A DNA stretch of 64,000 bases from Escherichia coli O127:H6 str. E2348/69 (GTDB lineage Bacteria > Pseudomonadota > Gammaproteobacteria > Enterobacterales > Enterobacteriaceae). Below, piece after piece: positions 3,024 through 64,000 of this stretch (positions are counted from its first letter, which is position 1; every line of letters begins with the position of its first letter). The position numbers were made by a program, and so were the translations under genes. Location: assembly GCF_000026545.1 (NCBI RefSeq), contig NC_011601.1; one strand, given 5' to 3'. Below the pieces are notes generated by a model. The model ran no database searches and had not been told where the DNA came from. It saw only the letters and a program-made list of their open reading frames with translations.

Positions 3024-3075
3024 GGCTTAACCGGTGGCAGGTTCACCGGTTTACTGATTTTTGAAGATGATAGCC

Positions 3076-3774: not shown

Positions 3775-3785
3775 GTGAGGCTGTG

Positions 3786-8592: not shown

Positions 8593-9377
<785 letters not shown>

Positions 9378-38860: not shown

Positions 38861-41800
38861 TCAAGCGATCGCGTTCTCTTCCAGTTCACGCATAAACTGG
38901 CGTACCCATTCGATACGCGTTTTCCGCTCGCTCAAATCCTGAATAAACTTCAGACGCGTCGGACCATCAAGGCGGTAATGCTGCGGCTGTTTTTGCAGCA
39001 AACCAATCAACCAGGCTGGATTAACGTGATTCTTCTCGGCAAATTCGATCACGCCGCCTTTCTCATTACCTTCCAGCTTCCTGATCCCCAGTTTCTGCGC
39101 TTGCTGGCGCAGACGGGCAATATCCAGCAGGGTACGCGCCGGATCCGGCAGCAGGCCGAAGCGATCGATAAGCTCGACTTTGATCTCTTCCAGTTCGTTT
39201 TCCGTTTTGGCGCTGGCAATACGTTTGTAGAACGACAGACGCGTGTTCACGTCAGGGATGAAATCATCTGGCAATAGCGACGGCATCCGCAGCTCGACTT
39301 CTGTTTGCTGGCTGGTGAGATCTTCCAGCGACGGCTCGCGTCCGGCTTTCAGCGCATCGACGGCGTTTTCCAGCAACTCCATATACAGCGAGAAACCGAT
39401 GGTTTCCATTGAGCCGCTTTGTTCTTCGCCAAGCAGTTCACCCGCGCCGCGGATCTCCAGATCGTGCGTTGCCAGCGCAAAACCTGCACCGAGATCTTCC
39501 AGCGAGGCAATCGCTTCAAGACGTTTTTGCGCATCGGTAGTCATCGCTTTTGGATGCGGCGTCAGCAGCCATGCATATGCCTGGTGGTGCGAACGCCCGA
39601 CGCGACCGCGCAACTGGTGCAACTGTGCCAGACCGAAGTGATCCGCACGTTCAATGATAATGGTGTTGGCGGTAGGAATGTCGATCCCGGTTTCGATAAT
39701 GGTGGTACAAACCAGCACGTTGAAACGTTGATGATGGAAATCATTCATCACCCGTTCCAGTTCGCGCTCACGCATTTGCCCGTGACCGATAGCAATCCGC
39801 GCTTCAGGTACCAGTTCTGCCAGCCGTTCGGCGGCTTTCTGGATGTTTTCCACATCATTGTAGAGATAATAAACCTGTCCTCCGCGCAAAATTTCACGCA
39901 GGATCGCCTCCCGGACCACCAGACTGTCATACTCACGGACAAAGGTTTTAACTGCCAGACGACGGGCGGGCGGCGTGGCGATAATCGACAGATCGCGCAT
40001 TCCGCTCATTGCCATATTCAGCGTACGTGGGATCGGCGTTGCGGTAAGCGTCAGAATATCCACGTTCGCGCGCATCGCTTTAATGCGCTCTTTATGACGT
40101 ACCCCGAAGCGGTGTTCTTCATCGACAATCAGCAGGCCTAAATCTTTAAACTTGACGTCACTTTGCAGCAGTTTGTGCGTACCGATCAGAATATCAATTT
40201 TCCCTTCCGCCACTTCCGCAAGGATTTGCGTCTGCTCTTTGGCGCTGCGGAAACGGGAGATCATTTCGATACGTACCGGCCAGTTGGCGAAACGGTCGCG
40301 GAAGTTGTCGTAATGCTGCTGCGCGAGAAGGGTGGTAGGCACCAGCACCGCCACCTGTTTGTGGTTATCTACCGCCAGGAAAGCGGCGCGCATCGCCACT
40401 TCTGTTTTACCAAAGCCAACATCGCCGCACACCAGACGATCCATTGCCAGCGGCTGACACATGTCGCTAAGCACCGCATTAATGGCTTGAGCCTGATCCG
40501 GCGTGGTTTCAAACGGGAAGCTGTCGCAGAATAACTGATACTGCTCACGATCGTGTTTAAACGCGAAGCCCTCTTTGGCGGCGCGTTGCGCGTAGATATC
40601 CAGCAATTCCGCCGCCACATCACGCACTTTTTCCGCCGCTTTCTGCCGTGCGCGTGACCAGGCATCGCCACCAAGTTTATGCAGTGGTGCGTTTTCTTCT
40701 GCGCCACCCGCGTAACGGCTAATCAGATGCAGTGACGACACCGGAACATACAGTTTGGCGTCGTTGGCATAGGTGAGCATCAAATACTCGCCAGTAATGC
40801 CTCCAGCTTCGAGCGTGGTCATTCCGGCATAACGACCGACGCCGTGCTCCAGATGGACCACCGGCTGACCAATATGCAGCTCCGCAAGGTTACGGATCAG
40901 TGTATCGGGGTTGATGGCGCGGCGAGAATCCTGACGACGACGGGCAACGCGTTCACCGAGCAGATCGCTTTCGCAAATCAGCGCCAGATTACGTACCGTA
41001 TCGACAAAACCATGCTCTGCAGCGCCAATCATCAGATAACGCCCACGGTCGCTGGCTTCATCAAGACGCATAATGCGTTGCGGAGCAATTTTAATTCGCG
41101 CGAGCAGTTCACCCAACGCTTCACGGCGGCCTTCACTTTCTACCGAGAACACCACCGGACCGTCGAAAGACTCGAGGAACTTACGCAGCGCATCCAGCGG
41201 CGCTTTTTGTTGTGCCTGAATGGCCAGGTCTGGCAGTTTCTGGAAACCTAAATTGGCATTCGCTGCTTTTGTCGGTAAATGTTCAGTTTTTAGCTGCACA
41301 CGGGGCCAGTTTTTCAGCTCTGAGAAGAGCTCATCCACCCGCAGCCAGAGCGATTGTGGTGGCAACAGTGGGCGCATTGGGTCGACACCGCGATTCTCAA
41401 AACGCGCGAGCGTGTCAGCCTGGAAACGTTCGGCACTGTTTTCCAGATCGCCAGTATTTACCAGCAGCGTATTGGCAGGGAAATAACTGAACAGTGGCGG
41501 CAGCGGTTCGCTGAAGAATAGTGGCTGCCAGTACTCGATCCCGGCAGGTAATGTGCCTTTACTCACTTGCTGGTAAATATGTTCCGGATCGCGCTTCACT
41601 TCGAAGGTATCACGCCACTGGCTGCGGAACAGTTCAATTGCCGCTTTATCGGTCGGAAATTCGTGCGCGGGCAGCAGATTGATCGCATCTACTTCCTCCA
41701 GCGTGCGCTGGCTATCGACGTCAAACACCCGCAGGCTGTCGATTTCATCATCAAAGAAATCAAGACGATAAGGCAGCTCACTCCCCATAGGGAAGAGATC

Positions 41801-42307
41801 CAGCAACGCGCCGCGCGTGGCGTATTCGCCGTGCTCCATCACCTGGTCAACATGGCGATAACCGGCGCTGTCCAGTTGGGTTCGTAATGCATCTCGTGAC
41901 AGGCGCTGACCTTTTTTCATCACCAGCGCATGACCGTGGAGAAAGCTGTGCGGGCAAACGCGCTGCATAAGCGTATTCACCGGAACAATCAGTACGCCAC
42001 GCTGCATGGTCGGTAGCTGGTAAAGGGTGGAAAGGCGCGAGGAGATAATGTCCTGATGAGGCGAAAAACTGTCGTAAGGGAGGGTTTCCCAGTCCGCCAG
42101 ATTCATCACCATCTGATCGGTAAACTGGCTGATTTCATCATGCAAACGCAGAGCATTTTGCATATCTGGTGCAATGAGTACCACCGGACCGGCGTGACGT
42201 TCGGCAATTTCCGCTACCAGCGTCGCGCAGGCAGCGCCGGTTAACTCGCCCAGCAGACGCTGCTCACCCGCTTTGACGGGCAGCGTATAACGATATTGTT
42301 CAGGCAT
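38861..42307 (-). CDS. mfd: transcription-repair coupling factor Mfd
   Basis: 1148 aa from MPEQYRYTLPVKAGEQRLLGEL; superfamily-2 helicase motifs (Walker A GDVGFGKTEVA, DEEHRFG). Confidence 0.95.
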   Translation of the reverse strand: MPEQYRYTLPVKAGEQRLLGELTGAACATLVAEIAERHAGPVVLIAPDMQNALRLHDEISQFTDQMVMNLADWETLPYDSFSPHQDIISSRLSTLYQLPTMQRGVLIVPVNTLMQRVCPHSFLHGHALVMKKGQRLSRDALRTQLDSAGYRHVDQVMEHGEYATRGALLDLFPMGSELPYRLDFFDDEIDSLRVFDVDSQRTLEEVDAINLLPAHEFPTDKAAIELFRSQWRDTFEVKRDPEHIYQQVSKGTLPAGIEYWQPLFFSEPLPPLFSYFPANTLLVNTGDLENSAERFQADTLARFENRGVDPMRPLLPPQSLWLRVDELFSELKNWPRVQLKTEHLPTKAANANLGFQKLPDLAIQAQQKAPLDALRKFLESFDGPVVFSVESEGRREALGELLARIKIAPQRIMRLDEASDRGRYLMIGAAEHGFVDTVRNLALICESDLLGERVARRRQDSRRAINPDTLIRNLAELHIGQPVVHLEHGVGRYAGMTTLEAGGITGEYLMLTYANDAKLYVPVSSLHLISRYAGGAEENAPLHKLGGDAWSRARQKAAEKVRDVAAELLDIYAQRAAKEGFAFKHDREQYQLFCDSFPFETTPDQAQAINAVLSDMCQPLAMDRLVCGDVGFGKTEVAMRAAFLAVDNHKQVAVLVPTTLLAQQHYDNFRDRFANWPVRIEMISRFRSAKEQTQILAEVAEGKIDILIGTHKLLQSDVKFKDLGLLIVDEEHRFGVRHKERIKAMRANVDILTLTATPIPRTLNMAMSGMRDLSIIATPPARRLAVKTFVREYDSLVVREAILREILRGGQVYYLYNDVENIQKAAERLAELVPEARIAIGHGQMRERELERVMNDFHHQRFNVLVCTTIIETGIDIPTANTIIIERADHFGLAQLHQLRGRVGRSHHQAYAWLLTPHPKAMTTDAQKRLEAIASLEDLGAGFALATHDLEIRGAGELLGEEQSGSMETIGFSLYMELLENAVDALKAGREPSLEDLTSQQTEVELRMPSLLPDDFIPDVNTRLSFYKRIASAKTENELEEIKVELIDRFGLLPDPARTLLDIARLRQQAQKLGIRKLEGNEKGGVIEFAEKNHVNPAWLIGLLQKQPQHYRLDGPTRLKFIQDLSERKTRIEWVRQFMRELEENAIA

Positions 42308-50124: not shown

Positions 50125-51171
50125 TTAACGTCCTGCTTTCAGCTTCTGATAATACTCTTCATAAATGCTGCTGGCGGAGCCTACGTCATTTTGCCATTCA
50201 CCATTTTTAATGGTTTCAGCATCCGGGTAGAGCGTTTTATCGTTCGCCACTTCCGGACTTAACAGCTTACGCGCCGCAAGGTTTGGCGTTGGATAACCGA
50301 TAGTTTCAGCAACCTGTTTTGCCACATCCGGGCGCAGCAGGAAGTTGATCAATTTCAGCGCGCCTTCTTTGTTTTTGGCATTTGCCGGGATCGCCAGGCT
50401 GTCCATCCAGAAAATGCCGCCTTCTTTCGGCCACACCACATCAATTGGCGTACCCGCCTGGCGTGCAACGAAAGCAGAACCGTTCCAGATCATGCCGAGG
50501 TTAACTTCGCCTTCCATATACGGGTTCGCCGGGTTATCGGAGTTAAACGCCGCGACGTTTGGCATCAGCTTTTTCAGCTCGTTGTATGCAGCTTCAATCT
50601 CTTTCGGATCGGTGGTGTTACCGGAGTAGCCCAGCTTACGCAGCGCCATCTGGAACACTTCACGGGCATCGTCGGTCAGCAGCAGGCTGCCTTTGTACTC
50701 AGGTTTCCACAGATCGGCCCAGCTGGTGACAGATTTCGGATCCACCGCATCACCGTTAACGCCAATCGCCGTTGCACCCCAGATATACGGAATGGAATAG
50801 TCGTTATTCGGGTCAAACGGCTTGTTGAGCATGTCTGGATCGAGGTTGCTGAAATTGCTTAACTTCGACTTGTCGATCTTCTGGATCATCCCTTCTTTAC
50901 GCATTTTATCGACGTAATAGGTTGAAGGAACCACCAGGTCATAGGCACCGTCTTTGTACGTTTTCAGCTTCGCGTACATGGTTTCGTTCGACTCGTAAGT
51001 CGAATAGATAACCTTAATACCGGTTTCTTTGGTGAACTGTTCAAGCAGTCCTGGCGGCACGTACTCGGTCCAGTTGTAGAAATACAGCGTGTTGTTGTCA
51101 TCGGCGTGAGCGGCGCTCATGCCCAGTGCCAGAGCACCCGCCGCGAGCAGGTGGCGTGACCATTTTTTCAT
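50125..51171 (-). CDS. potD: spermidine/putrescine ABC transporter periplasmic binding protein
   Basis: 348-aa ORF with signal peptide. Confidence 0.95.
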   Translation of the reverse strand: MKKWSRHLLAAGALALGMSAAHADDNNTLYFYNWTEYVPPGLLEQFTKETGIKVIYSTYESNETMYAKLKTYKDGAYDLVVPSTYYVDKMRKEGMIQKIDKSKLSNFSNLDPDMLNKPFDPNNDYSIPYIWGATAIGVNGDAVDPKSVTSWADLWKPEYKGSLLLTDDAREVFQMALRKLGYSGNTTDPKEIEAAYNELKKLMPNVAAFNSDNPANPYMEGEVNLGMIWNGSAFVARQAGTPIDVVWPKEGGIFWMDSLAIPANAKNKEGALKLINFLLRPDVAKQVAETIGYPTPNLAARKLLSPEVANDKTLYPDAETIKNGEWQNDVGSASSIYEEYYQKLKAGR

Positions 51172-51962
51172 TTAACGTCCCCTGTGTTACCTTTCGTTTT
51201 ATCACGAGCAATAAGCTGGCTGGCAATAACCATCACCAGCGACAGCACCAGTAATATGGTTGCCAGCGCGTTAACTTCCGGCGATACGCCGACTTTGACC
51301 ATCGAATAAATTTTTAACGGCAGAATTTCATAACTCGGCCCGGTGACAAACGAAGAAACCACCACGTCGTCCATCGACAGGGTAAAGCTTAACACCCAGC
51401 CCGCCGCTACCGCTGGCATTGCCAGAGGCAGAATGATTTTTCGCAGAATGGTAAATTCGCTGGCACCGAGATCTTTCGCCGCTTCCAGCATTCGCACGTC
51501 AAAACCTTTCAGGCGCGAATACACTGTCACCACCACAAATGGCAGGCAGAAGGTGATATGCGAGAACAGCAGCGACCAGAAGCCAAGCTGAATACCCAGC
51601 AGCATAAACAGCACCAGCAGCGAAATCGCCATCACGATATCTGGTGACATCATCACCACAAACAGCATTCCGCTAACGAACGGCTTACCACGAAAGCGAT
51701 AACGGTACAGCGCAACTGCCGTCAGTGAACCGATAAGCGTAGCAAACGTCGCCGAAAACACCGCCATTGTTAGTGAATGCTGCGCTGCCTGTAACAGGCT
51801 GTCGTTGTTCATCAGCAGGCTATACCATTTGGTGGTAAAACCCTGCCAGTTGATGCCAAAGCGCGAGCTGTTAAAGGAGTTCACAATCAAAATAATGATT
51901 GGGATATACAGGTACGCGTAGATAGCGGTCATAAAACCGCCGCGAAGCAGTCGACCGATCAT
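51168..51962 (-). CDS. potC: spermidine/putrescine ABC transporter permease
   Basis: 264-aa ORF with the ABC permease EAA-like motif. Confidence 0.95.
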   Translation of the reverse strand: MIGRLLRGGFMTAIYAYLYIPIIILIVNSFNSSRFGINWQGFTTKWYSLLMNNDSLLQAAQHSLTMAVFSATFATLIGSLTAVALYRYRFRGKPFVSGMLFVVMMSPDIVMAISLLVLFMLLGIQLGFWSLLFSHITFCLPFVVVTVYSRLKGFDVRMLEAAKDLGASEFTILRKIILPLAMPAVAAGWVLSFTLSMDDVVVSSFVTGPSYEILPLKIYSMVKVGVSPEVNALATILLVLSLVMVIASQLIARDKTKGNTGDVK

Positions 51963-52078
51963 TCGAGTTCCACCTTCTTATTCATAAGGCGGGACACTTT
52001 CAGGATTTTGAATTTATTCAATTTTTTCCTTTCTCCAAAATCTCTCCAAAACGTTTCCCCAAAACTAGGCCACGCATT
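51959..52078 (-). pseudogene. potB: 3'-terminal remnant of potB at the prophage junction
   Basis: In-frame codons ...SRLMNKKVELE then TGA overlapping the potC start as in the potABCD operon; no start codon and no permease body upstream, where the integrase gene begins instead. Confidence 0.5.
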
Positions 52079-52128
52079 TTACAACACTTTTTTCCTGAGA
52101 TGGTGACGGATATTCCATATGGTGTTTA

Positions 52129-53247
52129 TCAAATAACCAACTTAACCCATTCCTGACCTCGAGTATCGTTATAGCGATCGGTGGTTGCCTGGACTTTATG
52201 TCCTAGTAATGTTTTTGTATCAATACCCTGTGCACGGTACAGCCGTTCTGATAGAGAGCGTTGTTCATGAAATGTTGGCGGAGTTTTTCCTGCTGGTGGA
52301 ATTATCCCAGCCAGATCCCGTGCTTTGGCAAAGTAGTCGCTCAGGTTGTCTTTACTCATCGGCTTCGGTTGTTTCTGGTGCCGACTATGGATTAGATATG
52401 GACTTAATATTCTGTCTCGGCACCCATCAATAACTTCTTTTAACGTTATCCCAATGGCATCACAGCGTAGTGTAAGCGGTAACGCCAGACGCATTCCGGT
52501 TTTTCCCTGGGTGATATGCAAGTGTTCGTTCCACACATCTGAAAAACGCATGTGGCAAATGTCATCACGGCGCTGACCAGTAACAATCGCAAGAAGCATT
52601 GCGTTACGGATAAAGTGTTTTTCAGGCGTTGCATTGTAAATTTTTTGCCAGTCTTCCATGGTGAGCCTGGCTCTGGTTACTTTAGGGATCGGTTTACGGG
52701 TAGCCTCCGGAGGATTCCATCCAGGAGGAACTTCCCCTGCATGCTGTGCTTCTTTATAAATATCAACCCATAATCCACGATTTACTCTCGCTGTGCTGAC
52801 CATGTCTTTATCCAGCCACTCATCCAGTATTAATGCAAAGTCTCTTACTTCCAGTTCTTTCAATGGGTGGTTTCCCAGACGGGAAACCAGGTATGCAGCC
52901 ATTCGGGTTTTTTCTTTGTGAGTTGTAGCTGCAATATCTCCATTTTTCAGTCGCGTGTCCTGTATTTTCAGATATCGATCAACCCATGCCTTTAATCTGA
53001 TACCCTGACGTTTTGTTGCTGACGGACTTTCATCAATTTTGCGCATGAAATATTCAGCTTCTGCTGCAGCTATTCGCTGATTGGCTGTGGAAGCGATTTT
53101 TTCTGCCTTACCTTTGTCTGTTCCGAGTCCGTGAAATTTTCCAGTCACAGGATTTTTATACTGGTAGTAAACTCTGCCAGTTCTGCGATCAAACTTTTCG
53201 TAAAGACCGGCTACGTCAGTGCTGTTTTTTCGTGGCCTCGGTGACAT
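52129..53247 (-). CDS. int: prophage tyrosine integrase (lambda Int family)
   Basis: 372-aa ORF; C-terminal catalytic region HEQRSLSERLY...LLGHK...RYNDTRGQEW parallels lambda Int. Confidence 0.9.
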   Translation of the reverse strand: MSPRPRKNSTDVAGLYEKFDRRTGRVYYQYKNPVTGKFHGLGTDKGKAEKIASTANQRIAAAEAEYFMRKIDESPSATKRQGIRLKAWVDRYLKIQDTRLKNGDIAATTHKEKTRMAAYLVSRLGNHPLKELEVRDFALILDEWLDKDMVSTARVNRGLWVDIYKEAQHAGEVPPGWNPPEATRKPIPKVTRARLTMEDWQKIYNATPEKHFIRNAMLLAIVTGQRRDDICHMRFSDVWNEHLHITQGKTGMRLALPLTLRCDAIGITLKEVIDGCRDRILSPYLIHSRHQKQPKPMSKDNLSDYFAKARDLAGIIPPAGKTPPTFHEQRSLSERLYRAQGIDTKTLLGHKVQATTDRYNDTRGQEWVKLVI

Positions 53248-53494
53248 GAGTTAAAATCTCCTTCAGTGCATCATCATCGCCAGTATGAATTTCCGGCGCA
53301 ATTCCCGTTTCACCAGGCCCAACAAATACTGCTCGGCGATCTATCAGCCAACGCCCACGAATTTTTTGTGGTCTTGGAACGATGTATCCTAGTTTTCCGT
53401 ATTTCACCAGGGTAGTGTTTGTTATTGGGAGACTGAACCGTTTTGGTTTCCACTCGTCGAGCGTTATCAGGTACTGTTCGCTCATGGCTATCAC
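53216..53494 (-). CDS. xis: prophage excisionase
   Basis: Small ORF overlapping the int start by 32 nt; winged-helix Xis-like sequence (YLITLDEW...); true start may be 53485. Confidence 0.7.
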   Translation of the reverse strand: MIAMSEQYLITLDEWKPKRFSLPITNTTLVKYGKLGYIVPRPQKIRGRWLIDRRAVFVGPGETGIAPEIHTGDDDALKEILTHVTEATKKQH

Positions 53495-53546
53495 TCCGGA
53501 ACGCGCCAGTTGCAGAATATCAACGACAACTGGCGACGGTTGAACA

Positions 53547-56018
53547 TTAAAAATCAGCCTGATTCGGGATCAGTTTTTGCCAGATAGCTGAAACGTATTT
53601 TGCCTGGTGACGAGCGTCATCAAGTGCATTATGGCGCTCACCTTCGAATGGAATAGCCGTTCTGGCATCGAAGTCTATGGCTTTCCCCAGCTCAACGATT
53701 GTGCGTACATCGCGATCGTTGTAGTAACGCCACGGGCAGGGGATCCCCTGCCGTTCGTATGAACGGCGCAAAATCGTGTTGTCGAAGTTGGCTCCATTTC
53801 CCCAAACCTGAACAAAAAATTCACCGGAGTTTTCGTCGATAAATTCCCGCAATTGTAACAGTGCATCATCTAACGGGATTTCATCGGTCATAATGGCAGA
53901 TTGCGCTTCGCGTGATTGCTTAAGCCACCATTTAATGGTGTCCCGATCAATGACTCCGCCAGCAGTTTCCAGATCGATAGTCTTACTAAATTCCGGTCCC
54001 ATATCTCCGGTTTGCGGATCGAAAAATATTGCACCTATTGAGATGATCGGGGCATCAGGATTTTTTCCCATGGTTTCAAGGTCGATCATTAGATGGTCAC
54101 ACGTCCTGCTGGTGGATGTGATTTCGTGATGACCGTTCACCTTAATTGAGTGATCTGCCGTCTCGCCAGTCTCATTATCGCTATTGTGATGCTGATTGCC
54201 GCCAGTGTTCTCCTTGTGTGGATGCTCAGCGCCTTCCATTTCCTCCGGATCATCTTCCTGAACTTCAACCTGATACTCTTCATCGAATGTTTCCTGGTAT
54301 GTTGCGTCGCCCATCACCGCACCACAATCAGGGCAGTTGCCGCCGCCGGTCTGACCGCAGGCGGTGCAGACTTTTTCCACTTCCTGTTGCACTACTGGTT
54401 CAGGTAGTTTCGTTTCTGGCTCGTTTTGTTGCGTATTTGGGCTGTTTTGTTCCGCTTTCTGGTCGTTCTGTTCCGTTTCTTGCTGGTTCTGGTTCACAGA
54501 ATCGCGGGTTTCAATCCCCTTCACCCATTTCGGATCATTCGGATCGCTAATCCCTGCAACAAATTCACCACGTGATACTGCAAGCAGTTCATCGGCGTCA
54601 GGCTGGCTGATATTGGCTGCCTGCATAATTTTGTTTACTTCGTCAGCGGTAACTTTTACCGGCCCTGGTTGTGCGGTCGTGTCAGATGCACCAGTATTTT
54701 GTTGTGAACCTGAGTATGTACCGTTTTTGCGGGCGAAATATTCTTCTTTCGTGATTTCAGTAGCCCCTGCAGCCAGTGCCTTATCCAGACCAGAAAGTTT
54801 GTTTGCGCGACCGTATTTTTCGCTATCCTTGTCGGTGAAGAGGAAGTAGAACGGCCCTTCACGCTCTACAGATGGTTCGACTTCCACTTTGCATTCGGTT
54901 TTTTCGTTGTCCGGAATTGCCGTTTCCACTGCATCAGTTTCTGGTACTGGCGACGAGAGAGTATCAGTTGCGCTCTGATTTGTTCCTTCATCTTCAAACA
55001 CGCCCTTTGTAGTCAGGTATTCAGTAATGTATTTGTTCAGTGCCACAGGGTCTTTGTGAATGTCGATCGGACGTTCACGGACAAGGCCAAAAATAGTCTG
55101 GCGGTCGTAGCGAAGGGCATCAGGCTGTTTGCGCATTGATGCCGAGATACGCTTCCAGTCTTCGCGGTAGTTGTCGATAACTTCATTTTTTGCCCAGCGA
55201 TGGATGCTGCCGTCAATGTTTCCGGCATCCACATCACCAGGCCAGAGAGCGTAGGCCAGTTCGTCATCCAGTGTTTTCCATGTCTGCTTGTATTCGCGAT
55301 GAGTGGCAGCAATGACCGGGCTGATTTTTCCTGTTGAATTTTCAGTGTTCTGTTGATTGGCTCTGGCGCGGGCGAGATCAACAACAGACGTGTATTTTCC
55401 GGTTTCCTTGCGTTCACCTTCGCGACGTTTTTTCCAGATGCGCATCTCTGCCTGAATTTCGGGCCATTTGGCACCAGGCTTACATTTATGCTTAACCCAC
55501 CCGATGGCATGCAGCTTAAGCTCCGGATACATGGCGTTAACTTCTGGCATTTTCATCAACGCTTCAACGATATGTCCGTCGAATGTTGCCATGTCTTCCT
55601 GCAACAATTCCTGTGCGCTAATCACCATATCAACGGTGATGTTTTCACATGTGTCGAACTTAACCATGACAGCGTTCTGTACTTCAGGGGCCAGCTTGTC
55701 AAAAGTGACGTTCATCGGATCGGATTCAGTCTCAACCGGGACAAAAGAAGCAGAATCCTCATCCCAGCGGTTTTCCTGCATATATTCAGCATCCCATGAA
55801 TCGAGGGCAGGGCGGGGTATGCCAGGTTTATCCTCGCAGACAATAAATTTATAAGCGCAGTCCTGAGCAGCCGGATAATGTTCCAGGAATTGCCAGTGAA
55901 ATTTTGCTCGAGCACGGCGTTCGTCGCCAGCTTCAATGGCTGTGGCTACAGCCACAGCGCCTTCTTCCCTTGTTGCCAGTTCGTCAGGAATAGCGGCGCA
56001 AATAAAGACTTTACTCAT
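53547..56018 (-). CDS. prophage exonuclease with C-terminal DnaQ-like (DEDDh) 3'-5' exonuclease domain
   Basis: ORF 53547-56054 (alternative start MSKVF at 56018); C-terminus has DLETMG and HNALDDA motifs; central Gln/Asn/Glu-rich linker and a Cys4 cluster CTACGQTGGGNCPDCG. Confidence 0.7.
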   Translation of the reverse strand: MSKVFICAAIPDELATREEGAVAVATAIEAGDERRARAKFHWQFLEHYPAAQDCAYKFIVCEDKPGIPRPALDSWDAEYMQENRWDEDSASFVPVETESDPMNVTFDKLAPEVQNAVMVKFDTCENITVDMVISAQELLQEDMATFDGHIVEALMKMPEVNAMYPELKLHAIGWVKHKCKPGAKWPEIQAEMRIWKKRREGERKETGKYTSVVDLARARANQQNTENSTGKISPVIAATHREYKQTWKTLDDELAYALWPGDVDAGNIDGSIHRWAKNEVIDNYREDWKRISASMRKQPDALRYDRQTIFGLVRERPIDIHKDPVALNKYITEYLTTKGVFEDEGTNQSATDTLSSPVPETDAVETAIPDNEKTECKVEVEPSVEREGPFYFLFTDKDSEKYGRANKLSGLDKALAAGATEITKEEYFARKNGTYSGSQQNTGASDTTAQPGPVKVTADEVNKIMQAANISQPDADELLAVSRGEFVAGISDPNDPKWVKGIETRDSVNQNQQETEQNDQKAEQNSPNTQQNEPETKLPEPVVQQEVEKVCTACGQTGGGNCPDCGAVMGDATYQETFDEEYQVEVQEDDPEEMEGAEHPHKENTGGNQHHNSDNETGETADHSIKVNGHHEITSTSRTCDHLMIDLETMGKNPDAPIISIGAIFFDPQTGDMGPEFSKTIDLETAGGVIDRDTIKWWLKQSREAQSAIMTDEIPLDDALLQLREFIDENSGEFFVQVWGNGANFDNTILRRSYERQGIPCPWRYYNDRDVRTIVELGKAIDFDARTAIPFEGERHNALDDARHQAKYVSAIWQKLIPNQADF

Positions 56019-56110
56019 TTGTTTTAACCTCATGACAGATTTAAGGATGAACAAATCCCTGCCATTGCTGGCATATAAGAATGAAACCGGATATTTATTA
56101 CGGAACTGTT

Positions 56111-56302
56111 TTAAAGACCTGCCGGGATTTCGATATTATCCTGGTGAATAACTTTATCGACCGGGTAACAGTTACCGGGAATTTTCTGTTCGGTTGCTGC
56201 AGTCATACACTACTGCATTGTCCTGTGAACACTGACTGCAATATCAACTGGCTCTCCGGAAACAAGAAAAACTGTCAGAACAAGCACAAATGCTGAATTC
56301 AT
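56111..56302 (-). pseudogene. ydfD: ydfD-like lysis-protein gene interrupted by an in-frame amber codon
   Basis: MNSAFVLVLTVFLVSGEPVDIAVSVHRTMQ then TAG, then the frame continues CMTAATEQKIPGNCYPVDKVIHQDNIEIPAGL; total length equals a 63-aa gene; start overlaps the dicB stop as ATGA. Confidence 0.6.
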
Positions 56303-56487
56303 TGTGCACATCCTTTTGGCATCAGACGTAAACGAGCCAGCATTGAAACAATGCATATTTTATTTAATAGCTCCCGTTCTTGTTTTCTCTTGTTAATGGC
56401 ATCTTCAGTAAATACTGGGTTACTGATAGTGACACCAATTTCAAAACAACCTTCAGACGTATTAACGTTTGGTAATAACGTTTTCAT
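56299..56487 (-). CDS. dicB: cell-division inhibitor DicB
   Basis: 62 aa from internal Met (MKTLLPNVNTSEGCFEIGVTISNPVFTEDAINKRKQERELLNKICIVSMLARLRLMPKGCAQ); lies downstream of dicF in the dicA-side operon. Confidence 0.75.
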   Translation of the reverse strand: MKTLLPNVNTSEGCFEIGVTISNPVFTEDAINKRKQERELLNKICIVSMLARLRLMPKGCAQ

Positions 56488-56656
56488 TATCGCGTCCTCA
56501 ACAATGAATTTTGTGATGCAGTGCCTGGTGCCTCCAGGTGACGTTAACCAGTTAACAATTAACGCCGGATACAGAGAATCCACCCATAACACTGTTTTTG
56601 GTTTTAACTGTTCCGCGTGCGCTCAGCCGCATTCACCACATCACAAAATTCACTTT

Positions 56657-56714
56657 AAAAAGGGCGGCAGAGCAGTCACGGAGTAAAACTGATACCGCCA
56701 AACGTCACCAGAAA
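56657..56714 (-). ncRNA. dicF: DicF small RNA
   Basis: Minus-strand sequence TTTCTGGTGACGTTTGGCGGTATCAGTTTTACTCCGTGACTGCTCTGCCGCCCTTTTT matches the recalled DicF sequence including its terminator hairpin and U-tail. Confidence 0.75.
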
Positions 56715-57055
56715 ATTGATAACAGAGGGCGTTGCAGCGGGGTTGTCACTTAAGCGTATGGTCAACCTGACAACCCGGTGTCCTCAACGGGGGAAGGAAT
56801 AACCCCGCCATACTTACCGCCGCGCCATTTCGCGGATTGCCACAACCGGAAGCGCACGGTCGACGAAAATTTAACGACAGGCTATCTATGAACCAGCTAC
56901 CTCGCCGTGCGCTTTCGCGTTATGGTCTGACTTTTCAGGGAAATATCCTTTCAGTAAACTGTCAGTGCCGGATGCTCACCCGTGTCCGGCGCACGCACTC
57001 CACCTCATCCGTGGAGAACTCCTTAATTACCAACCTTAGCTTCGTTGGTTAGCTA

Positions 57056-57274
57056 TTAACGCGGGTATGTAATCATTCTGGCAATGCTTAATGTCGCTGC
57101 TTTTTCCAGATTAGTGATATCCTGCTCCAGAGCGGACAGATTTTCAGCCTGCTTAGCCCTGGCTTCATTGGCCCATTTCAGATCCTGCGCTGCATTAATT
57201 TTCTGGCGCATCCACTCATAAAGTTCATCATCGGTATAGTCTGGCGCGATGATGACGGGTTCTCGTTTCTGCAT
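57056..57274 (-). CDS. ydfC: Qin-type small prophage protein YdfC-like
   Basis: 72-aa ORF in the expected position and size between ydfB and dicF. Confidence 0.6.
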   Translation of the reverse strand: MQKREPVIIAPDYTDDELYEWMRQKINAAQDLKWANEARAKQAENLSALEQDITNLEKAATLSIARMITYPR

Positions 57275-57303
57275 ACTGATTCCTCGCGGTGCTGTTTCGC
57301 TTA

Positions 57304-57432
57304 TCAGCCGTTAGATTTTGCCGAACTGGAAAGTGCCTGTTTAAATTCGCTGAAGCTGAGAGCTTCTTCGCCTTCGGCAAGACCTTCGAAGTATTCTTCG
57401 TAAGCCTTTTCCATGATTGTGTCGAAATCCAT
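57304..57432 (-). CDS. ydfB: Qin-type small prophage protein YdfB-like
   Basis: 42-aa ORF (MDFDTIMEKAYEEYFEGLAEGEEALSFSEFKQALSSSAKSNG), below the ORF-track cutoff; found by direct translation. Confidence 0.55.
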   Translation of the reverse strand: MDFDTIMEKAYEEYFEGLAEGEEALSFSEFKQALSSSAKSNG

Positions 57433-57433
57433 A

Positions 57434-57589
57434 TCACCCACCTGAATTTCTTTCCAGCCAGCGACGCGCTCCAGATTCGGTTTTAAACGTTTTGCTTTTG
57501 GTATACGTCATCGCGGTGAACGTACCGTCCTGGTTGGGGAACACGCCACATACCAGAGATTCGCTGTTGCCAAGATCGATAGTATCCAT
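57434..57589 (-). CDS. ydfA: Qin-type small prophage protein YdfA-like
   Basis: 51 aa from internal Met (MDTIDLGNSESLVCGVFPNQDGTFTAMTYTKSKTFKTESGARRWLERNSGG); the ORF-track frame extends to 57682. Confidence 0.55.
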   Translation of the reverse strand: MDTIDLGNSESLVCGVFPNQDGTFTAMTYTKSKTFKTESGARRWLERNSGG

Positions 57590-57780
57590 GTTGACCTCAT
57601 TTCCCCTTAACGCCGGGGTAGCGGAACTGTTTGCTGAGAACACCGTGCGGTGTCTTGATGGATCGTAATTTAGTTTTCTCATGAATATTGATCAAGTGCT
57701 TTTGATGATAAAACTCAATATTTAATGCAAAATAAAGCCAATACATTGAAATGTAAGGCTTTAAAATTTGTGAAGGGGGG

Positions 57781-58188
57781 TTATTGATGTTTGTTACGTT
57801 TGCGAGCTTCTAGTAGCTCGGTGAATAGGCGATTAAAATTCTCAACGCGGGCACGGAGTTCGCTGATTTGTGCTTGCTGCTCTGATTTTGGAAGTGCGCG
57901 ATACAATCGCAACATCTCCAACTCATCTTCCGATAAGTCTAAGGCGCTGTTGAGTGCAACTGGTGGATCTGGTGTTTTATCCTCGTCACCAAACAGTATC
58001 CAAGTTGGTGAACATTGCAATACCTCAGCCAGGCGATGCAAATTTTGCCCGCGCGGGGCTGTATGGTCGCTTTCCCATAGTGAAATTGATGAGCCAGATA
58101 CGCCAGCAGCTTTGCTTAAATCGTTTTGACTTAAACCAACCTGTTTGCGTCTTTCTCTAATTCGTTGACCTAAAGTTTTCTCGTTCAT
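57781..58188 (-). CDS. dicA: prophage repressor, DicA-like (XRE-family HTH)
   Basis: 135-aa ORF; HTH region QRIRERRKQVGLSQNDLSKAAGVSGSSISLWE and the VLQCSPTWILFGDEDK segment recalled from DicA. Confidence 0.85.
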   Translation of the reverse strand: MNEKTLGQRIRERRKQVGLSQNDLSKAAGVSGSSISLWESDHTAPRGQNLHRLAEVLQCSPTWILFGDEDKTPDPPVALNSALDLSEDELEMLRLYRALPKSEQQAQISELRARVENFNRLFTELLEARKRNKHQ

Positions 58189-58209
58189 ATTTAGATATCT
58201 TAATAACCC

Positions 58210-58239
58210 TTGACTTGAGATTCCTTGAGTGATTACTAT
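58210..58239 (+). promoter_or_regulatory. candidate rightward promoter and operator region of the dicA/dicC switch
   Basis: -35 TTGACT (58210-58215), 18-nt spacer, -10-like TACTAT (58234-58239); three TTGAG pentamers 11 and 14 nt apart. Confidence 0.4.
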
Positions 58240-58265
58240 TGAGAAAACTCAACTTTGGAGGGGTG

Positions 58266-58493
58266 ATGTTTAAATCAGACGTAATTAATTTTTATGGGAC
58301 GAAAGCCAAAGTAGCGAAAGCTGCTGGTGTTGATCCATCTGCTGTTTCTCAATGGGGGGAACTGGTTCCTGAAGGTCGCGCGATGCGCCTGCAAGAGGCA
58401 TCCGGCGGGGAACTTCAGTACGACCCCAAAGTTTATGACGAATATCGTAAGGCAAAGCGGGCGGGGCGGTTGAACAATGAAAATCACCCCTGA
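58266..58493 (+). CDS. dicC: Cro-like regulator, DicC-like
   Basis: 75 aa from internal Met (MFKSDVINFYGTKAKVAKAAGVDPSAVSQWG...); divergent from the repressor gene. Confidence 0.75.
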   Translation: MFKSDVINFYGTKAKVAKAAGVDPSAVSQWGELVPEGRAMRLQEASGGELQYDPKVYDEYRKAKRAGRLNNENHP

Positions 58494-59028
58494 ACAGGTT
58501 TGTGAGGCTCTGGATGCCTGGGTATGCCGACCAGGAATGACACAGGAGCAGGCGACGATATTAATCACGGAAGCATTCTGGGCTCTGAAAGAACGCCCGA
58601 ACATCGATGTTCAACGCGTCACGTTTAATGATGGCGAGGTTGATCAACGGGCGCTGTGCGTTAACCGGGTGAAGATATTCGAACGCTGGAAAGCTATCGA
58701 CACCAGGGATAAGCGGAAAAAATTCACGGCGCTGATTCCGGCAATTATGGAGGCTATCCGAATTAGTGATTTCAGGCTGTATCGTGAGATCAGTGATGGA
58801 AAAAGCATTACGTACATGATCGCCGGATTAAACAAAGAATATGGCGATGTGGTGGAGTCCGGGCTGCTTTTTGCGGATCCATCTGTTGTGGAACGTGAGA
58901 CTGACGAGCTTATAGAAAAAGCTATTGCTTTCAAGCATGCGTATCGTCAGCAATATCAATATTACTTTGCAGATAAACAAATGTCTGCCAGGGGTTCGTA
59001 TGAGTATCGATGCACTACGATGGGCTAA
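58477..59028 (+). CDS. prophage early protein, YdaT-like (CII-analogue family)
   Basis: 183-aa ORF overlapping the dicC stop; segment KFTALIPAIMEAIRISDFRLY resembles the recalled YdaT core; function uncertain. Confidence 0.5.
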   Translation: MKITPEQVCEALDAWVCRPGMTQEQATILITEAFWALKERPNIDVQRVTFNDGEVDQRALCVNRVKIFERWKAIDTRDKRKKFTALIPAIMEAIRISDFRLYREISDGKSITYMIAGLNKEYGDVVESGLLFADPSVVERETDELIEKAIAFKHAYRQQYQYYFADKQMSARGSYEYRCTTMG

Positions 59029-60040
59029 AAAGGTGAAAACCGGCAGTTCATCCAGTAAGTCTGTATTGACCTGGCTTGCTGATATGTGCGGTGCCGATTT
59101 GTGTGCATACCCGTCTGTATCTGCACTGGCAGAAGTAACGGAACTGAACAAAAAGACTGTGCAGGACAGCTTACGACACCTGATGGAGATTGGGTTAATT
59201 GTTGATACCGGTGAGAGAAAAGGCAGAACAAAGCAAATTGTGGTGTACCGACTTATCGGTGTAGAAGAAAGTGTTGCCGAGCCTGAATACACCCAAAAAC
59301 GGGAGTCTTTAAAGGTGGGTAAAATCGGTGCTGTTAATAAAAACAGTACCGAAAATGGTTATGTTTCAGCACAAAACAGACCCAAAAACGGAACTCTTAG
59401 CTGCATGGAAAATAACCAAAGACACCCAAATTTTCCATCAAAGACACCCAAAAACGGATCACGGAACCCAAAGGAACCCAAAGAGCTAAACCCCACACAT
59501 AACGCACGCGAGAGTGCTCCGACCAGTGAGCAGAAAGTTTTGTCGTTACAGGCTGCACCTCCTGTATTCCTGGATGGCCTGAGCGAACCCATCGAAAAAT
59601 TTCCGATGACCGATAGCTGGTATCCGTCACGGGATTTTCGACGACGGGCTGCGTTGTGGGGGATGGCTTTGCCGGAGACAGAATTCACACCTGCTGAACT
59701 TGCCGCCTTCCGGGACTACTGGGCTGCTGAGGGGAAAGTGTTTACGCAGATTCAGTGGGAGCAGAAATTCGCCCGTCACGTAAATCACGTCAGGGCGCAG
59801 GTTAAACCAGTCAGCAAGGGGGTAAACCATGCAGCAGCACCAGGTGACACCGCATCACGGGCAGTTCAGGAAATTCGGGCAGCACGTGAGCAGTGGGAAC
59901 GTGAAAACGGATTTATCAGCGACGGAAACGGCCTGGAAGCTGTGGGAACTCATGGGGGAGGTTTATTCGAACCGCTGGACCCAGAAGAACGGGGCCGCAC
60001 CTTCGAAGCTCTGGATTGCACAGATTGGTGCGATGACTGA
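59000..60040 (+). CDS. phage replication initiation protein (O-like, N-terminal winged HTH, DnaT-like C-terminal region)
   Basis: Start taken at MSIDALRWAKKV (ORF track 58925); HTH segment LAEVTELNKKTVQDSLRHLMEIGLIV. Confidence 0.7.
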   Translation: MSIDALRWAKKVKTGSSSSKSVLTWLADMCGADLCAYPSVSALAEVTELNKKTVQDSLRHLMEIGLIVDTGERKGRTKQIVVYRLIGVEESVAEPEYTQKRESLKVGKIGAVNKNSTENGYVSAQNRPKNGTLSCMENNQRHPNFPSKTPKNGSRNPKEPKELNPTHNARESAPTSEQKVLSLQAAPPVFLDGLSEPIEKFPMTDSWYPSRDFRRRAALWGMALPETEFTPAELAAFRDYWAAEGKVFTQIQWEQKFARHVNHVRAQVKPVSKGVNHAAAPGDTASRAVQEIRAAREQWERENGFISDGNGLEAVGTHGGGLFEPLDPEERGRTFEALDCTDWCDD

Positions 60041-60494
60041 GCAGAAAATCCGACAGGTCTGCCGCCAGTGCATGGACCGCTGCCGGGCGGGTGAAACATG
60101 GCCTCCGGACCTGGCTGAGTTTGTGGCGCTGATTTCTGAAAGCGGAGCCAATCCATTCGGTCTGACGGTGGATGCCGTGATGGAGGAGTACCGTCGCTGG
60201 CGCAACGAGTCCTGGCGATACGACGGGAGCGATAAATACCCGTGGTCTCAGCCTGTGCTGTATCACATTTGCCTCGAGATGCGTTCAAAGGGGATTGAGC
60301 GGCAGATGACCGAAGGGGAGTTAAAACGGCTTGCAGAACGGCAGCTGACGAAATGGGCAAAGCATGTTAGTAACGGCCTGAGTGTTCCGCCAGTCCGGCG
60401 ACAACTGGCGGCACCCAAACGCCCGTCGGGGCCAACGCCAATTGAGTTGCTGAAACAGGAATATGAACGCCGGAAAGCGGCTGGGCTTGTCTGA
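59829..60494 (+). CDS. phage replication protein, lambda P-like (helicase loader)
   Basis: 221-aa ORF; C-terminal DKYPWSQPVLYHICLEMRSKG parallels lambda P (ESYPWKSNAHYWLV...); overlaps the O-like gene out of frame for about 210 nt; start uncertain (alternatives 59952, 60033). Confidence 0.7.
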   Translation: MQQHQVTPHHGQFRKFGQHVSSGNVKTDLSATETAWKLWELMGEVYSNRWTQKNGAAPSKLWIAQIGAMTEQKIRQVCRQCMDRCRAGETWPPDLAEFVALISESGANPFGLTVDAVMEEYRRWRNESWRYDGSDKYPWSQPVLYHICLEMRSKGIERQMTEGELKRLAERQLTKWAKHVSNGLSVPPVRRQLAAPKRPSGPTPIELLKQEYERRKAAGLV

Positions 60495-60526
60495 GTTGAG
60501 AAGTAATTTTTACCGGGAGGAAATTT

Positions 60527-60801
60527 ATGGAGACTGTTTTTGACGCACTGAAAGCAATGGGAAAAGCCACATCCATAGAACTTGCTGCGCGCGTGAAGAA
60601 GTGCTGAACGAACTATGGGAACTGAAAAAGGCTGGTTTTGTTGATAAAAGCGCGTACACCTGGCGTGTGGCTGATAACAACGTTCAGCAGGAACAGCCAG
60701 CGCAGGCAGAACTGCCGGAAGAAACCACCACAATGAGTGAAGTTATGCAGCGCATACTGGCATTTTATCAGGGAAATGTTCGATATTTTAGACGTTACTA
60801 G
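60527..60801 (+). pseudogene. small prophage gene split by a frameshift
   Basis: [26 protein letters not shown] then stop at about 60605; the reading frame continues after a 1-nt shift as ...[25 protein letters not shown]...RYFRRY (60601-60801). Confidence 0.45.
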
Positions 60802-61240
60802 ATTAAAGAGCATTAGTTCAGATGTGAATTGACATTGTGTGGCACAGGGTTGGGCTAGCGTGGGGGTTTGCTTTGTGTAAGAAACGGATGCTCTGCAAAT
60901 TACTACTAATGCTTAATGTTAGTCTGATCTGCTCCCCGATGATTAATACACCGCTATGTTAGTAATGTCTGTAGATCGCTGTGTGTTGCATCCATCGGTT
61001 GACCCCACAGTCCAAACCAGACTGTCAGCTTTGATTCGATTCTATCTACTCAACCTGTCAGGTAATGTCTGAGCTAATACACAGAGTACGGCTATCGCGA
61101 ACTTTAAGCTAGGTATCTGATACGCACCGTTCACTTGGTCGTACTTCTTGCACTGACTAGCTATCGTGCGCAGTTATTTATAGGTAATCTCCAGTGTATA
61201 ATTTTCCAACTTATGGGAGATTGTAAAACAGGAGGAATAT

Positions 61241-62083
61241 ATGAGGAAAAAATCGTTTGGACGTTGCCCGTTTGATTTCGACGAAGATGTAAAAAAAATA
61301 GCCGCGATAAATAAATATATCCATGCGAAATTTGAGAGGCATAAAAATAAAATAGATAACCTAAAGGGGGTGGAACAAAAATTGATGGTTTTACATTACT
61401 TTAATGTACTGAATGAACTTAGTAATCAGGCTATATTTTCTTTGAGTACCGGAGCCTTTTCAGCATCGGAAGTATTAACTAGAGTTATAATGGAACAGGC
61501 TGCCAATCAATTTTATATAGCAATTGATGATGGAAAAAATGCACAAGCATTACTCAAGGGTAGTAAGAAATTAGTTCATAGTAATGGGAAACGGTGGCTG
61601 GAGTGTTTAAAATCCAAAGAAATGACTAATCCAGCAGCAGATGAAAGGATTCGTATCGGAAAAGAGCTAACTGATATGTTTAATAGATTGTGGCCAAATA
61701 CACCTGAATATCCTGGAACCAAAAAGCTTTTCGAAGTAATTGGCTGGGAAACACACTATCATGCCTATTACGTCCCTCTTTGTGATTCAATACATACATT
61801 CTCTGATGATATGGCAAATATAGTATCTCTATATAATGCAATCCAAAGCGATAAAACTACTGCTATCGAACTCACTCTTGCAGTTAAACAAGAAAATAAA
61901 CGGCTGGCAATTTATAATGTCGTAATTGCTATTGGCCTGCGGTGTGAGGCCTTAGTAAATGTATTTAACTCTTTAGGTTATCGAGATATTATAACTGAAA
62001 TGGCGCCAACAATAGATGCAGTCAACCAGATTATAATTCGATATGATGATTTCGAACATTCCAGAATTTTTTATTGTCAATAA
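61241..62083 (+). CDS. hypothetical protein, AT-rich cargo gene (predicted mostly alpha-helical; function unknown)
   Basis: 280-aa ORF with AGGAGG SD 7 nt upstream and TATAAT -10 at about 61196; Lys/Ile/Asn-rich codon usage unlike the flanking prophage backbone. Confidence 0.7.
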   Translation: MRKKSFGRCPFDFDEDVKKIAAINKYIHAKFERHKNKIDNLKGVEQKLMVLHYFNVLNELSNQAIFSLSTGAFSASEVLTRVIMEQAANQFYIAIDDGKNAQALLKGSKKLVHSNGKRWLECLKSKEMTNPAADERIRIGKELTDMFNRLWPNTPEYPGTKKLFEVIGWETHYHAYYVPLCDSIHTFSDDMANIVSLYNAIQSDKTTAIELTLAVKQENKRLAIYNVVIAIGLRCEALVNVFNSLGYRDIITEMAPTIDAVNQIIIRYDDFEHSRIFYCQ

Positions 62084-62140
62084 TTAATTGGCAGAATTCG
62101 TACATGCACAACAACTAGTTATAGTTGACCTATTTCGCTC

Positions 62141-62709
62141 TTGAGAGACAACCATACTCAAATCTTCCACATTGCAGGAGATTTGAGTATGAATACGTCA
62201 CCGAGGAACAAAGACAGTATCATAGGCCCAAAAAGACCACTTCAGATATCTCATATCTGGGGGCTCCAAATCCGGCTTGAACTGGAAGGTAAAACGCGTG
62301 ATTTAGCTCGGTTTCAAGCAGAGCTACGGTGCTGCAACTGAAAAACTGGCAGTCCTATCCAATTTGAGATAACCAAAGGGACAAGAGAAGCTGTTTCTGC
62401 ATTGATAAAGCTTGGCAATTTACGCAGTAAAGACTACTTGTTCCGATCTCGGGTCGGTACTAACCAACACATATCAATCCTGCAATATAACCGAATCTTT
62501 CATAGGAGGGAGAAAAGCTTGGTCTCGAAGATTCGCTTTACAGCACACATTCCATGAGAAGAACAAAACCTTGCCTTGTCTGCAAGAAAACTAAGAATCT
62601 CCGGGTGATCCAACTTCCGTTGGGCCATAAGAAAACGGAAAGCACAGTTCGTTATCTGGGTATAGAAGTTGATGATGCATTAGAGATCTCTGAATCGATC
62701 GAAGTCTAA
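62141..62709 (+). pseudogene. decayed tyrosine recombinase (integrase-family) gene
   Basis: Recombinase segments spread over three frames: ...KRPLQISHIWGLQIRLELEGKTRDLARFQAELRCC / FEITKGTREAVSALIKLGNLRSKDYLF / SMRRTKPCLVCKKTKNLRVIQLPLGHKKTESTVRYLGIEVDDALEISESIEV (HxxR...Y catalytic tail). Confidence 0.6.
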
Positions 62710-62715
62710 AGCTGT

Positions 62716-62737
62716 CAGGGCTGCAGCAGCAGCCCTG
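62716..62737. repeat. perfect hairpin (9-bp stem, 4-nt loop) immediately after the recombinase relic
   Basis: cagggctgc-agca-gcagccctg; no U-tract follows, so not a canonical terminator. Confidence 0.5.
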
Positions 62738-63121
62738 TGCCAAGAGCGTACCAATATATGTCTCAAAAAATTGGGCACAGGTCAATATCAATACCAACAA
62801 CTCTGATTGTGCTCATGTGATTTACTCCTGTAGAAAACGCAGACAGTAAAAATATTTCACTGGCTGCTTCAGACAGGGCGTCCATCATATCATTACATAA
62901 CAATAGCGGGGCACGATATCTAGACATGCAGCAACGATGGACATAGAATGAGTACAATCAAAAGCATGTTTAACTACTTTAATTTAAAAATCTTAGAATC
63001 TTAGGTGTAGAGTTCAATACTTAGTTACATACCCTTTTGAAAGCATCACAAATCATAACTATGAGCCTGTTAAAGGCATAGGTATTCTTAATTAAGAGCA
63101 TTTTAATGAGAGAAAAATAAA

Positions 63122-64000
63122 ATGAAAAGACTATATTATACCCATCATGATAGTCGAACCTTAAAACTTGCTATAGAAGGTGATGTTTCTGATAATGCGA
63201 ATATTTTTACAGTAATTGTAGGTAAAAATGGCGTTGGAAAAAGCAGATTGTTATCTCAGATTGCTAAAGACTGTATTCAAGATATTCATTTCTTGAAAAC
63301 TTTTAATCCATTATTTGACAGAGAAATAACACCAAAGTTAATTGCCGTATCTACCAGCCCATTCGATAAATTCCCTCCAGGGCGTAGGTCATTAAATCAC
63401 CAAAGGAAAGAAAATAATTATCGCTATGTGGGTATGCGTGGAGAAGGCCCCTTCGGCGTATCAAATGCCGTATCCCTTTTATCTTCAGCAGCGAGAGGTT
63501 GGCTAGAGAAACTTGCTTATTCAGAAAATCCTGCAAATTTACTCGATGTTTTTCATTCTATTGATTTTGAGCCCCATATAGAGTTTGTATTTAAACCAAC
63601 TTACAACGGACCGGACACTCCTGACTATAACTTCATTGGTGTATATTCAGATGAGATATTAACGGAAGTTAAGGAGTTATATTTAAAATACAATATAAAA
63701 ATTGACAGGAAGAATATTGAGAGTCTCTTAAAGTTAAACTCCGAATCACGTCATGATATTTACGAAGCACTGGTTGAAATTAATCGATTTGAACCTGAAC
63801 GTAGGGCTGTAACCTTGTCAGTCGATTTTACCAATGGTGAAACATTGGTTGGCTCGACTTATGCGAATAATTATTTTTCTAGATCAATTCTTAAACTTAT
63901 GAACGCTGGCTTCATGAGATTGATGGATATGCGACTCATAAAAAAAAGCTATGGTCCCATGTCACTTAAACGTGCGAGCTCGGGAGAACAATGTTTATTA
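63122..64000 (+). CDS. ABC-type (AAA_15/AAA_21/OLD-like) ATPase, N-terminal 293 codons; runs off the window end
   Basis: Open frame from the ATG at 63122 with no stop to 64000 (absent from the ORF track for that reason); Walker A VIVGKNGVGKSRLL near residue 33; ABC-signature-like SSGEQ at the last codons; AT-rich. Confidence 0.7.
   Translation, partial: MKRLYYTHHDSRTLKLAIEGDVSDNANIFTVIVGKNGVGKSRLLSQIAKDCIQDIHFLKTFNPLFDREITPKLIAVSTSPFDKFPPGRRSLNHQRKENNYRYVGMRGEGPFGVSNAVSLLSSAARGWLEKLAYSENPANLLDVFHSIDFEPHIEFVFKPTYNGPDTPDYNFIGVYSDEILTEVKELYLKYNIKIDRKNIESLLKLNSESRHDIYEALVEINRFEPERRAVTLSVDFTNGETLVGSTYANNYFSRSILKLMNAGFMRLMDMRLIKKSYGPMSLKRASSGEQCLL

Follow-up and report, generated by a model that had tools for sequence, protein, structure and literature searches.

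How did a lambda-type int–xis pair come to lie beside potC in Escherichia coli O127:H6 str. E2348/69, and what became of potB, which runs uninterrupted into potC in genomes with an empty site? The stretch of DNA analysed here, hereafter the window, is 64 kb long (64,000 nucleotides), and it has 100% identity over its whole length to the finished E2348/69 chromosome, with 718-50717 and 50718-64000 aligned as two loci. Its first 50,000 positions are ordinary core chromosome, running from flg to rne, fab, ptsG, mfd, lolCDE, cobB, ycfZ and ymfA. The far junction of the prophage was read outside the window, from the complete E2348/69 record NZ_CP059840.2, in which the annotated gene order is potA, potB, a lambdoid prophage of about 40.8 kb, xis, int, potC and potD. 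An earlier note, made from the letters of the window, had proposed that a prophage is integrated into the 3' end of potB, with potC intact and the potB body replaced by a lambda-type int–xis pair. The features on which our analysis draws are the following.

50125-51171, minus strand: potD, periplasmic spermidine/putrescine-binding protein, intact (open reading frame and E2348/69 annotation)
51168-51962, minus strand: potC, permease, intact (open reading frame; NCBIfam PotC equivalog, 485 bits, cut-off 326)
51959-51984, minus strand: potB remnant beside potC, consisting of TGA 51959-51961, codons N-K-K-V-E-L-E 51962-51982 and 2 nt of the preceding codon (limit of the empty-site alignment and four-way att alignment)
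51971-51984, minus strand: common att core, 14 bp, TGAATAAGAAGGTG (identical in attB, attP and the near and far junctions)
51985-52128, minus strand: phage P' arm, 144 bp from the core to the int stop codon, starting with the K-V-S-R-L-M codons that look like a potB tail (joined directly to the P arm on the attP contig; absent from empty-site genomes)
52030-52064, minus strand: three tandem arm-type motifs TTTTGGRGARA, at 52030-52040, 52041-52051 and 52054-52064 (pattern match)
52129-53247, minus strand: int, lambda-type tyrosine integrase, 372 aa, transcribed toward potC (structure and Pfam matches)
53216-53485, minus strand: xis, excisionase, 89 aa, overlapping the int start (PHROG 629 excisionase, E 4.6e-26)
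53547-56018, minus strand: RecE/exonuclease VIII-like gene (PHROG 2082 exonuclease, full length; annotated as 3'-5' exonuclease)
51971-64000, no strand assigned: in-window part of a defective lambdoid prophage, about 12 kb out of 40,787 bp (identity to E2348/69 and annotation)

The attachment core and the two junctions

The open frame that ends in KILKVSRLMNKKVELE and a stop upstream of potC has its TGA at 51959-51961, overlapping the potC ATG. For genomes with an empty site, in which potB and potC are uninterrupted, the alignment to the window stops exactly at 51984; the host-type potB DNA beside potC totals 26 nt. The earlier note, which had suggested this comparison with an uninterrupted pot locus, was right that terminal potB codons persist next to potC, but its figure of a dozen or so codons was too high, as seven are of host origin (NKKVELE) and SRLM belongs to the phage P' arm. 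The K-V-S-R-L-M codons are P' arm DNA that looks like a potB tail, and they depart from the host ...A-S-R-L-L in the third base of each of the codons for S, R and L. Further upstream, this frame is closed by a stop that precedes the potB stop by 40 codons, and it has no similarity to a permease, in agreement with what had been read from the letters alone. The seven-codon remnant before potC is non-functional.

The core, TGAATAAGAAGGTG, spans potB codons (L)-N-K-K-V. A search of the window with three mismatches allowed returned this one copy and no second one, while E2348/69 has two, separated by 40,787 bp, at 7947 and 48734 of a 50-kb E2348/69 locus. The far junction thus falls outside the window, as the earlier note had expected, at the window-equivalent positions 92758-92771, about 28.8 kb past the window end. 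The direct repeat that the same note had placed at 52026-52128 turned out to be a unique stretch of the phage P' arm; what is repeated is 51971-51984.

We aligned four att forms, read along pot transcription, namely attB of E. coli DH1, the far junction, the int-proximal junction, and attP. The attP sequence was predicted from the two junctions and then searched as an exact 32-mer in IMG/VR, where it is present contiguously on one viral contig, UViG_2534681703_000014, of 45,442 bp. Positions 1-142 of this contig align to the P arm of the far junction and positions 129-5190 to window 51971-57035, and the two alignments overlap by exactly 14 bp (contig 129-142), which is the core. Two GenBank phage records with this int, vB_EcoS-640R1 and vB_EcoS-813R8, were rejected as sources of attP, since they are prophage-derived and include the host flanks potC, potD, ymfA and ycfZ.

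In the four-way alignment, the att flanks swap partners exactly at the edges of the 14-bp core, and partner switching of this kind, as read from the aligned sequences, is the signature of conservative site-specific recombination. The four sites agree in placing the prophage in the potB 3' end with the core confined to the last codons of the gene, as had been proposed. Our results indicate that a lambdoid prophage almost certainly entered by Int-mediated recombination between attP and attB at the extreme potB 3' end. The int-proximal junction is, in lambda terms, attL (B-O-P').

Homologous recombination through a phage-borne potB-like sequence, with no Int-mediated exchange, would offer another route, and the resemblance of attP to the potB tail on either side of the core (SRLM and SELDD) speaks for it. 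RecA-dependent exchange, however, needs far more than the 14 bp of continuous identity present here, the flanks diverge at once, and a complete lambda-type site with arm sites stands beside intact int and xis genes; we consider this route highly improbable. There is next to no chance that the junction is an assembly artefact or chimera, with potB truly contiguous with potC and int–xis brought in from elsewhere. Such an error is a general possibility for any contig, here with the far junction outside the window, but the identical junction is found in the finished E2348/69 chromosome and, with int beside potC, in 1600 independent genomes, about 29% of the 5426 complete ones for E. coli in RefSeq. 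The reciprocal far junction is present in 917 genomes, and prophage Sp6 of strain Sakai is annotated at the same base. An intact potB immediately upstream of potC, which the earlier note had named as the mark of a misassembly, is not what the complete E2348/69 genome contains: potB lies 40.8 kb away across the prophage. We saw nothing that speaks against Int-mediated integration, which is the reading that we follow below.

Integrase, excisionase and arm sites

The assignment of the gene pair upstream of potC as lambda-type int and xis, which had been made from the letters, is upheld by structure and family matches. Int matches the lambda Int structures 1z1b, 1z1g and 5j0n over residues 26-371 (E 4e-54); its N-terminus (residues 1-64) matches Pfam PF09003, Arm-DNA-bind_1 (E 7.3e-21), and its C-terminal catalytic domain matches PF00589, Phage_integrase (E 3.8e-18). 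All six catalytic residues of lambda Int are kept, including the tyrosine nucleophile, with R226, K249, H327, R330, H350 and Y359 aligned to lambda R212, K235, H308, R311, H333 and Y342. The arm domain, the catalytic domain and the complex attP that mark the lambda-type arm-binding tyrosine integrases were all found, the arm and IHF sites by pattern.

The 11-bp motif TTTTGGRGARA has three copies in the P' arm, at -80, -67 and -56 from the core, and these are its only matches in the window, as compared with 0.14 expected. A fourth copy is located in the P arm at +130, and no others occur in the 50-kb E2348/69 locus (chance expectation 0.14-0.21 across scans). We regard these copies as candidate sites for the N-terminal arm-binding domain of Int. 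The P arm also carries, by pattern match, a perfect IHF consensus, AATCAATCAATTG, at +109.

These elements suggest the following course of events. A tyrosine integrase of lambda type, whose N-terminus holds an arm-binding domain, would carry out the exchange inside the 14-bp identity, using an attP of lambda layout, with three tandem P' arm sites beside int and with one arm site and the IHF consensus in the P arm; the adjacent xis would serve excision. Integration would regenerate a full-length potB and leave the seven-codon remnant before potC, which would retain its own Shine-Dalgarno sequence, while potAB would stay with the potA promoter and potCD would be moved behind int. The presence of four att forms in public sequences, together with the adjacent xis, suggests that Int is active on attP and attB and, with Xis, in excision. 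By analogy, Int, IHF and Xis presumably act as they do in lambda.

The likeness to lambda extends from the protein to the layout of the site. Both systems have a three-domain Int with an arm-binding domain and an R-K-H-R-H-Y active site, a xis gene upstream of and overlapping int, an int gene beside a P' arm with three tandem arm sites, a P arm with an arm site and an IHF consensus, and a short common core. The core and arm sequences themselves are unlike those of lambda, and the attB is therefore different. The attB of lambda is intergenic, between gal and bio, whereas that of the E2348/69 prophage is within a coding sequence, for which the phage gives a replacement C-terminus. Unlike lambda, the P arm here has no detected sib-like structure, as its RNA fold is no better than that of shuffled sequence (z -0.29) in our search for a sib-like retroregulator.

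Consequences for potB and for potCD

The potB body was not replaced, as the earlier note had it, but is displaced by 40.8 kb and, judged from the sequence of the complete chromosome, is full length at the far junction. Three codons separate the core from the potB stop, and the frame runs on into the P arm as S-E-L-D-D-stop, so that a full-length potB is regenerated at that junction. The resulting PotB has 287 aa, of which residues 1-282 are identical to DH1 PotB, with the terminal ELE-stop changed to SELDD-stop. This hybrid matches the NCBIfam PotB equivalog from end to end (552.8 bits, cut-off 348), and its sequence suggests that it works. An exact 27-mer scan for the phage-encoded potB tail in 100,044 species-representative genomes returned nothing, and no terminator pattern was found between potB and the tail-fibre-assembly gene.

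On the other side of the prophage, potC is intact, as had been stated, its reading frame passing the PotC equivalog, and the protein (WP_000580316.1) is common to E2348/69 and to DH1 of the K-12 lineage. Most of the potC Shine-Dalgarno sequence (AAGAAGGTGG) is located inside the 14-bp core, so that potC keeps its translation signals. The operon, in contrast to that of empty-site genomes, is split: potAB keep the potA promoter, and potCD follow 40.8 kb further downstream, right after the int gene, which is read in the same direction. No terminator pattern was recognised between int and potC. A scan of 51700-53700, including the 166-bp gap between int and potC, returned no consensus sigma-70 promoter; a relaxed scan gave a sole weak candidate within int (TTGCCA, 19 nt, TGnGATAAT, 52331-52301), which we do not treat as evidence. 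Transcription of potCD presumably continues, either as read-through out of the int region or from weak promoters nearby. We found no study in the literature on potCD expression or spermidine uptake in potB lysogens, and one paper, on potC phages of O113:H21, describes such phages as disrupting the potAB-CD operon.

The integration might, then, functionally cripple the PotABCD spermidine importer. The changed C-terminus of PotB could be the cause, but polarity would be the more plausible one, with 40.8 kb of mostly repressed prophage standing between potCD and the potA promoter. The physical splitting of the operon, the lack of a consensus promoter in the 166-bp gap, and the wording of that one paper are in line with a loss of function. 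PotB, however, is full length and above the equivalog cut-off, the potC ribosome-binding site is kept, PotC is the same protein as in the K-12 lineage, and the stretch from the co-oriented int to potC has no terminator pattern. Moreover, about 29% of complete E. coli genomes maintain this arrangement, and potC is annotated as intact in every sampled row. On balance we find a crippled importer unlikely.

With int and xis pointing the same way as potCD, and with no terminator detected before potC, transcription might enter potCD from the phage int region. In lysogens, potCD may in this way have lost the control of the potA promoter and come under transcription from the int region instead, a suggestion that we offer as a long shot, and we found no paper that tests the idea. 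If it were true, spermidine/putrescine uptake would be coupled to the regulatory state of the prophage; for example, uptake would rise on induction, with early leftward transcription running through xis and int into potCD.

Distribution, relatives and state of the prophage

The potB/potC junction is an already known, catalogued attachment site of lambdoid phages in E. coli. What can be added here is a base-precise description of the site, including the 14-bp core, the candidate arm motifs, the change from ELE to SELDD, and the retained potC ribosome-binding site, for a very common arrangement (about 29% of complete E. coli genomes) that splits the potABCD operon. At the far junction, the P arm together with the tail-fibre-assembly gene is common to the 917 genomes mentioned above, while other genomes, such as O157:H7, match this junction only to about 30 nt past the core.

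The closest comparison is with Sp6 of E. coli O157:H7 Sakai, which has the same chromosomal site and orientation as the E2348/69 prophage and is annotated in the Sakai record from 11 nt past potC. Its Int (ECs_1501) is identical to the E2348/69 copy at 370 of 372 aa and its Xis (ECs_1502) at 89 of 89, and the junction DNA is the same at 184 of 186 positions, with the three arm motifs included. Sp6 differs in its length (about 48 kb), in its repressor/replication region, and in carrying the T3SS effector genes espX7 and espN; the rest is mosaic. The E2348/69 prophage shares with the Sp6 type a location at the potB 3' end with int beside potC, the same type of Int and Xis, and core repeats with a regenerated potB.

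The potC/potB insertion locus of Sp6-like prophages appears in a published list. Other published insertions in potB or potC are Phi-CFT073-potB, prophage J of O104:H4, and PP_potB of O157:H7 clade 8 and O145:H28, and the Stx2a and Stx2d phages of O113:H21 at potC are all of one integrase type. Compared by their published locus, some of these potB/potC prophages carry stx, whereas the E2348/69 prophage does not, as no stx was found in its annotated 40.8 kb. Phi-CFT073-potB has been described as Rac-like with recE, and by that published description it resembles the E2348/69 prophage, which has a RecE-like gene after xis.

The substitution of a host gene end by phage DNA has parallels elsewhere. 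In the case of e14 and phage 21, which reside in icd, the phage supplies a substitute end for the host gene. Rac in ttcA has been reported to alter only the terminal stretch of TtcA, with the phage arm continuing the frame. Compared with these three, the potB prophage has a different integrase and target, and the substitution is tiny (three residues to five). Its target, unlike theirs, is inside an operon, and downstream potCD are thereby parted from their promoter.

The E2348/69 prophage is defective. Three insertions, IS200C, ISEc13 and IS481, are annotated in it, and head and tail genes have been lost. A truncated piece of the S49 head protease directly adjoins one of the NlpC/P60 tail protein, and neither capsid nor tail-tube genes separate the two. 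The annotated 40.8 kb lists no gene for a major capsid or tail tube protein, and the prophage lacks the full complement of genes for head, tail, lysis and replication. Excision may remain possible, given that int and xis are intact as sequences. The RecE-like gene is the first early-region gene past xis; it is part of the prophage and outside the att module. In addition, the prophage holds a Qin-like dicB/dicC/ydfABC immunity region and a Septu defence pair.

The potB-tail look-alike and the phage attP

In the phage attP, the 14-bp att core is flanked on both sides by a look-alike of the potB tail (window 51985-52000 (-); 7961-7978 of L001, an E2348/69 chromosome locus). The attP sequence encodes K-V-S-R-L-M / N-K-K-V / S-E-L-D-D-stop, compared with R-A-S-R-L-L / N-K-K-V / E-L-E-stop in the host, and the S, R, and L codons of phage and host differ at third positions only. 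This restriction to third positions hints that the phage may have picked up the look-alike long ago from a potB that had diverged. An exact 27-mer of the phage look-alike had no matches in 100,044 species-representative genomes.

The viral contig L005 (UViG_2534681703_000014, IMG/VR), from which attP was taken, begins within the P arm, at the arm-type motif TTTTGGRGARA, 118 nt ahead of the attP 32-mer match and 128 nt ahead of the core (L005 1-142). Across the int, xis, and recE stretch it is ~96% identical to the E2348/69 prophage, and it appears to derive from a related phage that either had not integrated or was assembled as a circle. A promoter-like site directed toward potC was also found within the 3' part of int, comprising TTGCCA, a 19-nt spacer, and TGnGATAAT, as a consensus match only:
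52301-52331, (-), promoter-like site

Decay and mosaic make-up of the prophage

The E2348/69 prophage is defective. Outside the window, L001 8211-25453 carries IS200C, ISEc13, and IS481 insertions, and an S49 head-protease fragment there directly abuts an NlpC/P60 tail fragment, indicating that the capsid genes and most tail genes have been deleted. By likeness, the prophage combines a Qin-like immunity/early region, in which ydfD has an internal stop, with a Rac-like recE and Sp6-type int/xis, Sp6 being the O157:H7 Sakai prophage at potB/potC; this combination is an example of lambdoid prophage mosaicism.
56111-58188, Qin-like immunity/early region (dicB, ydfD, ydfC, ydfB, ydfA, HTH repressor, dicC)

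Septu genes and a candidate islet

The prophage interior holds a Septu anti-phage defence pair, PtuA and PtuB, matched by PADLOC:
63122-64000, (+), Septu pair, extending past the window (L001 35601-37596, - strand)
from 63122, (+), PtuA, 457 aa, running past the window end (PDLC00283, E 1.9e-165)
beyond the window, after PtuA: PtuB, HNH nuclease (PDLC00325, E 1.1e-83)

Two further genes lie beside the pair, the first of which has no PADLOC match:
61241-62083, (+), DUF5677 gene, adjoining the recombinase pseudogene
62189-62709, (+), second tyrosine recombinase, a frameshifted pseudogene directly upstream of the Septu genes

Taken together, these genes resemble a small integrative islet set within the prophage; this putative islet has phage replication genes on one side and the rusA/nin region on the other.

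Outside the prophage, a TacA-family antitoxin is paired with a GNAT acetyltransferase (TacT-like toxin) between rne and flgL:
~8593-9377, (-), antitoxin and acetyltransferase genes (41341-42125 of the chromosome locus L006)
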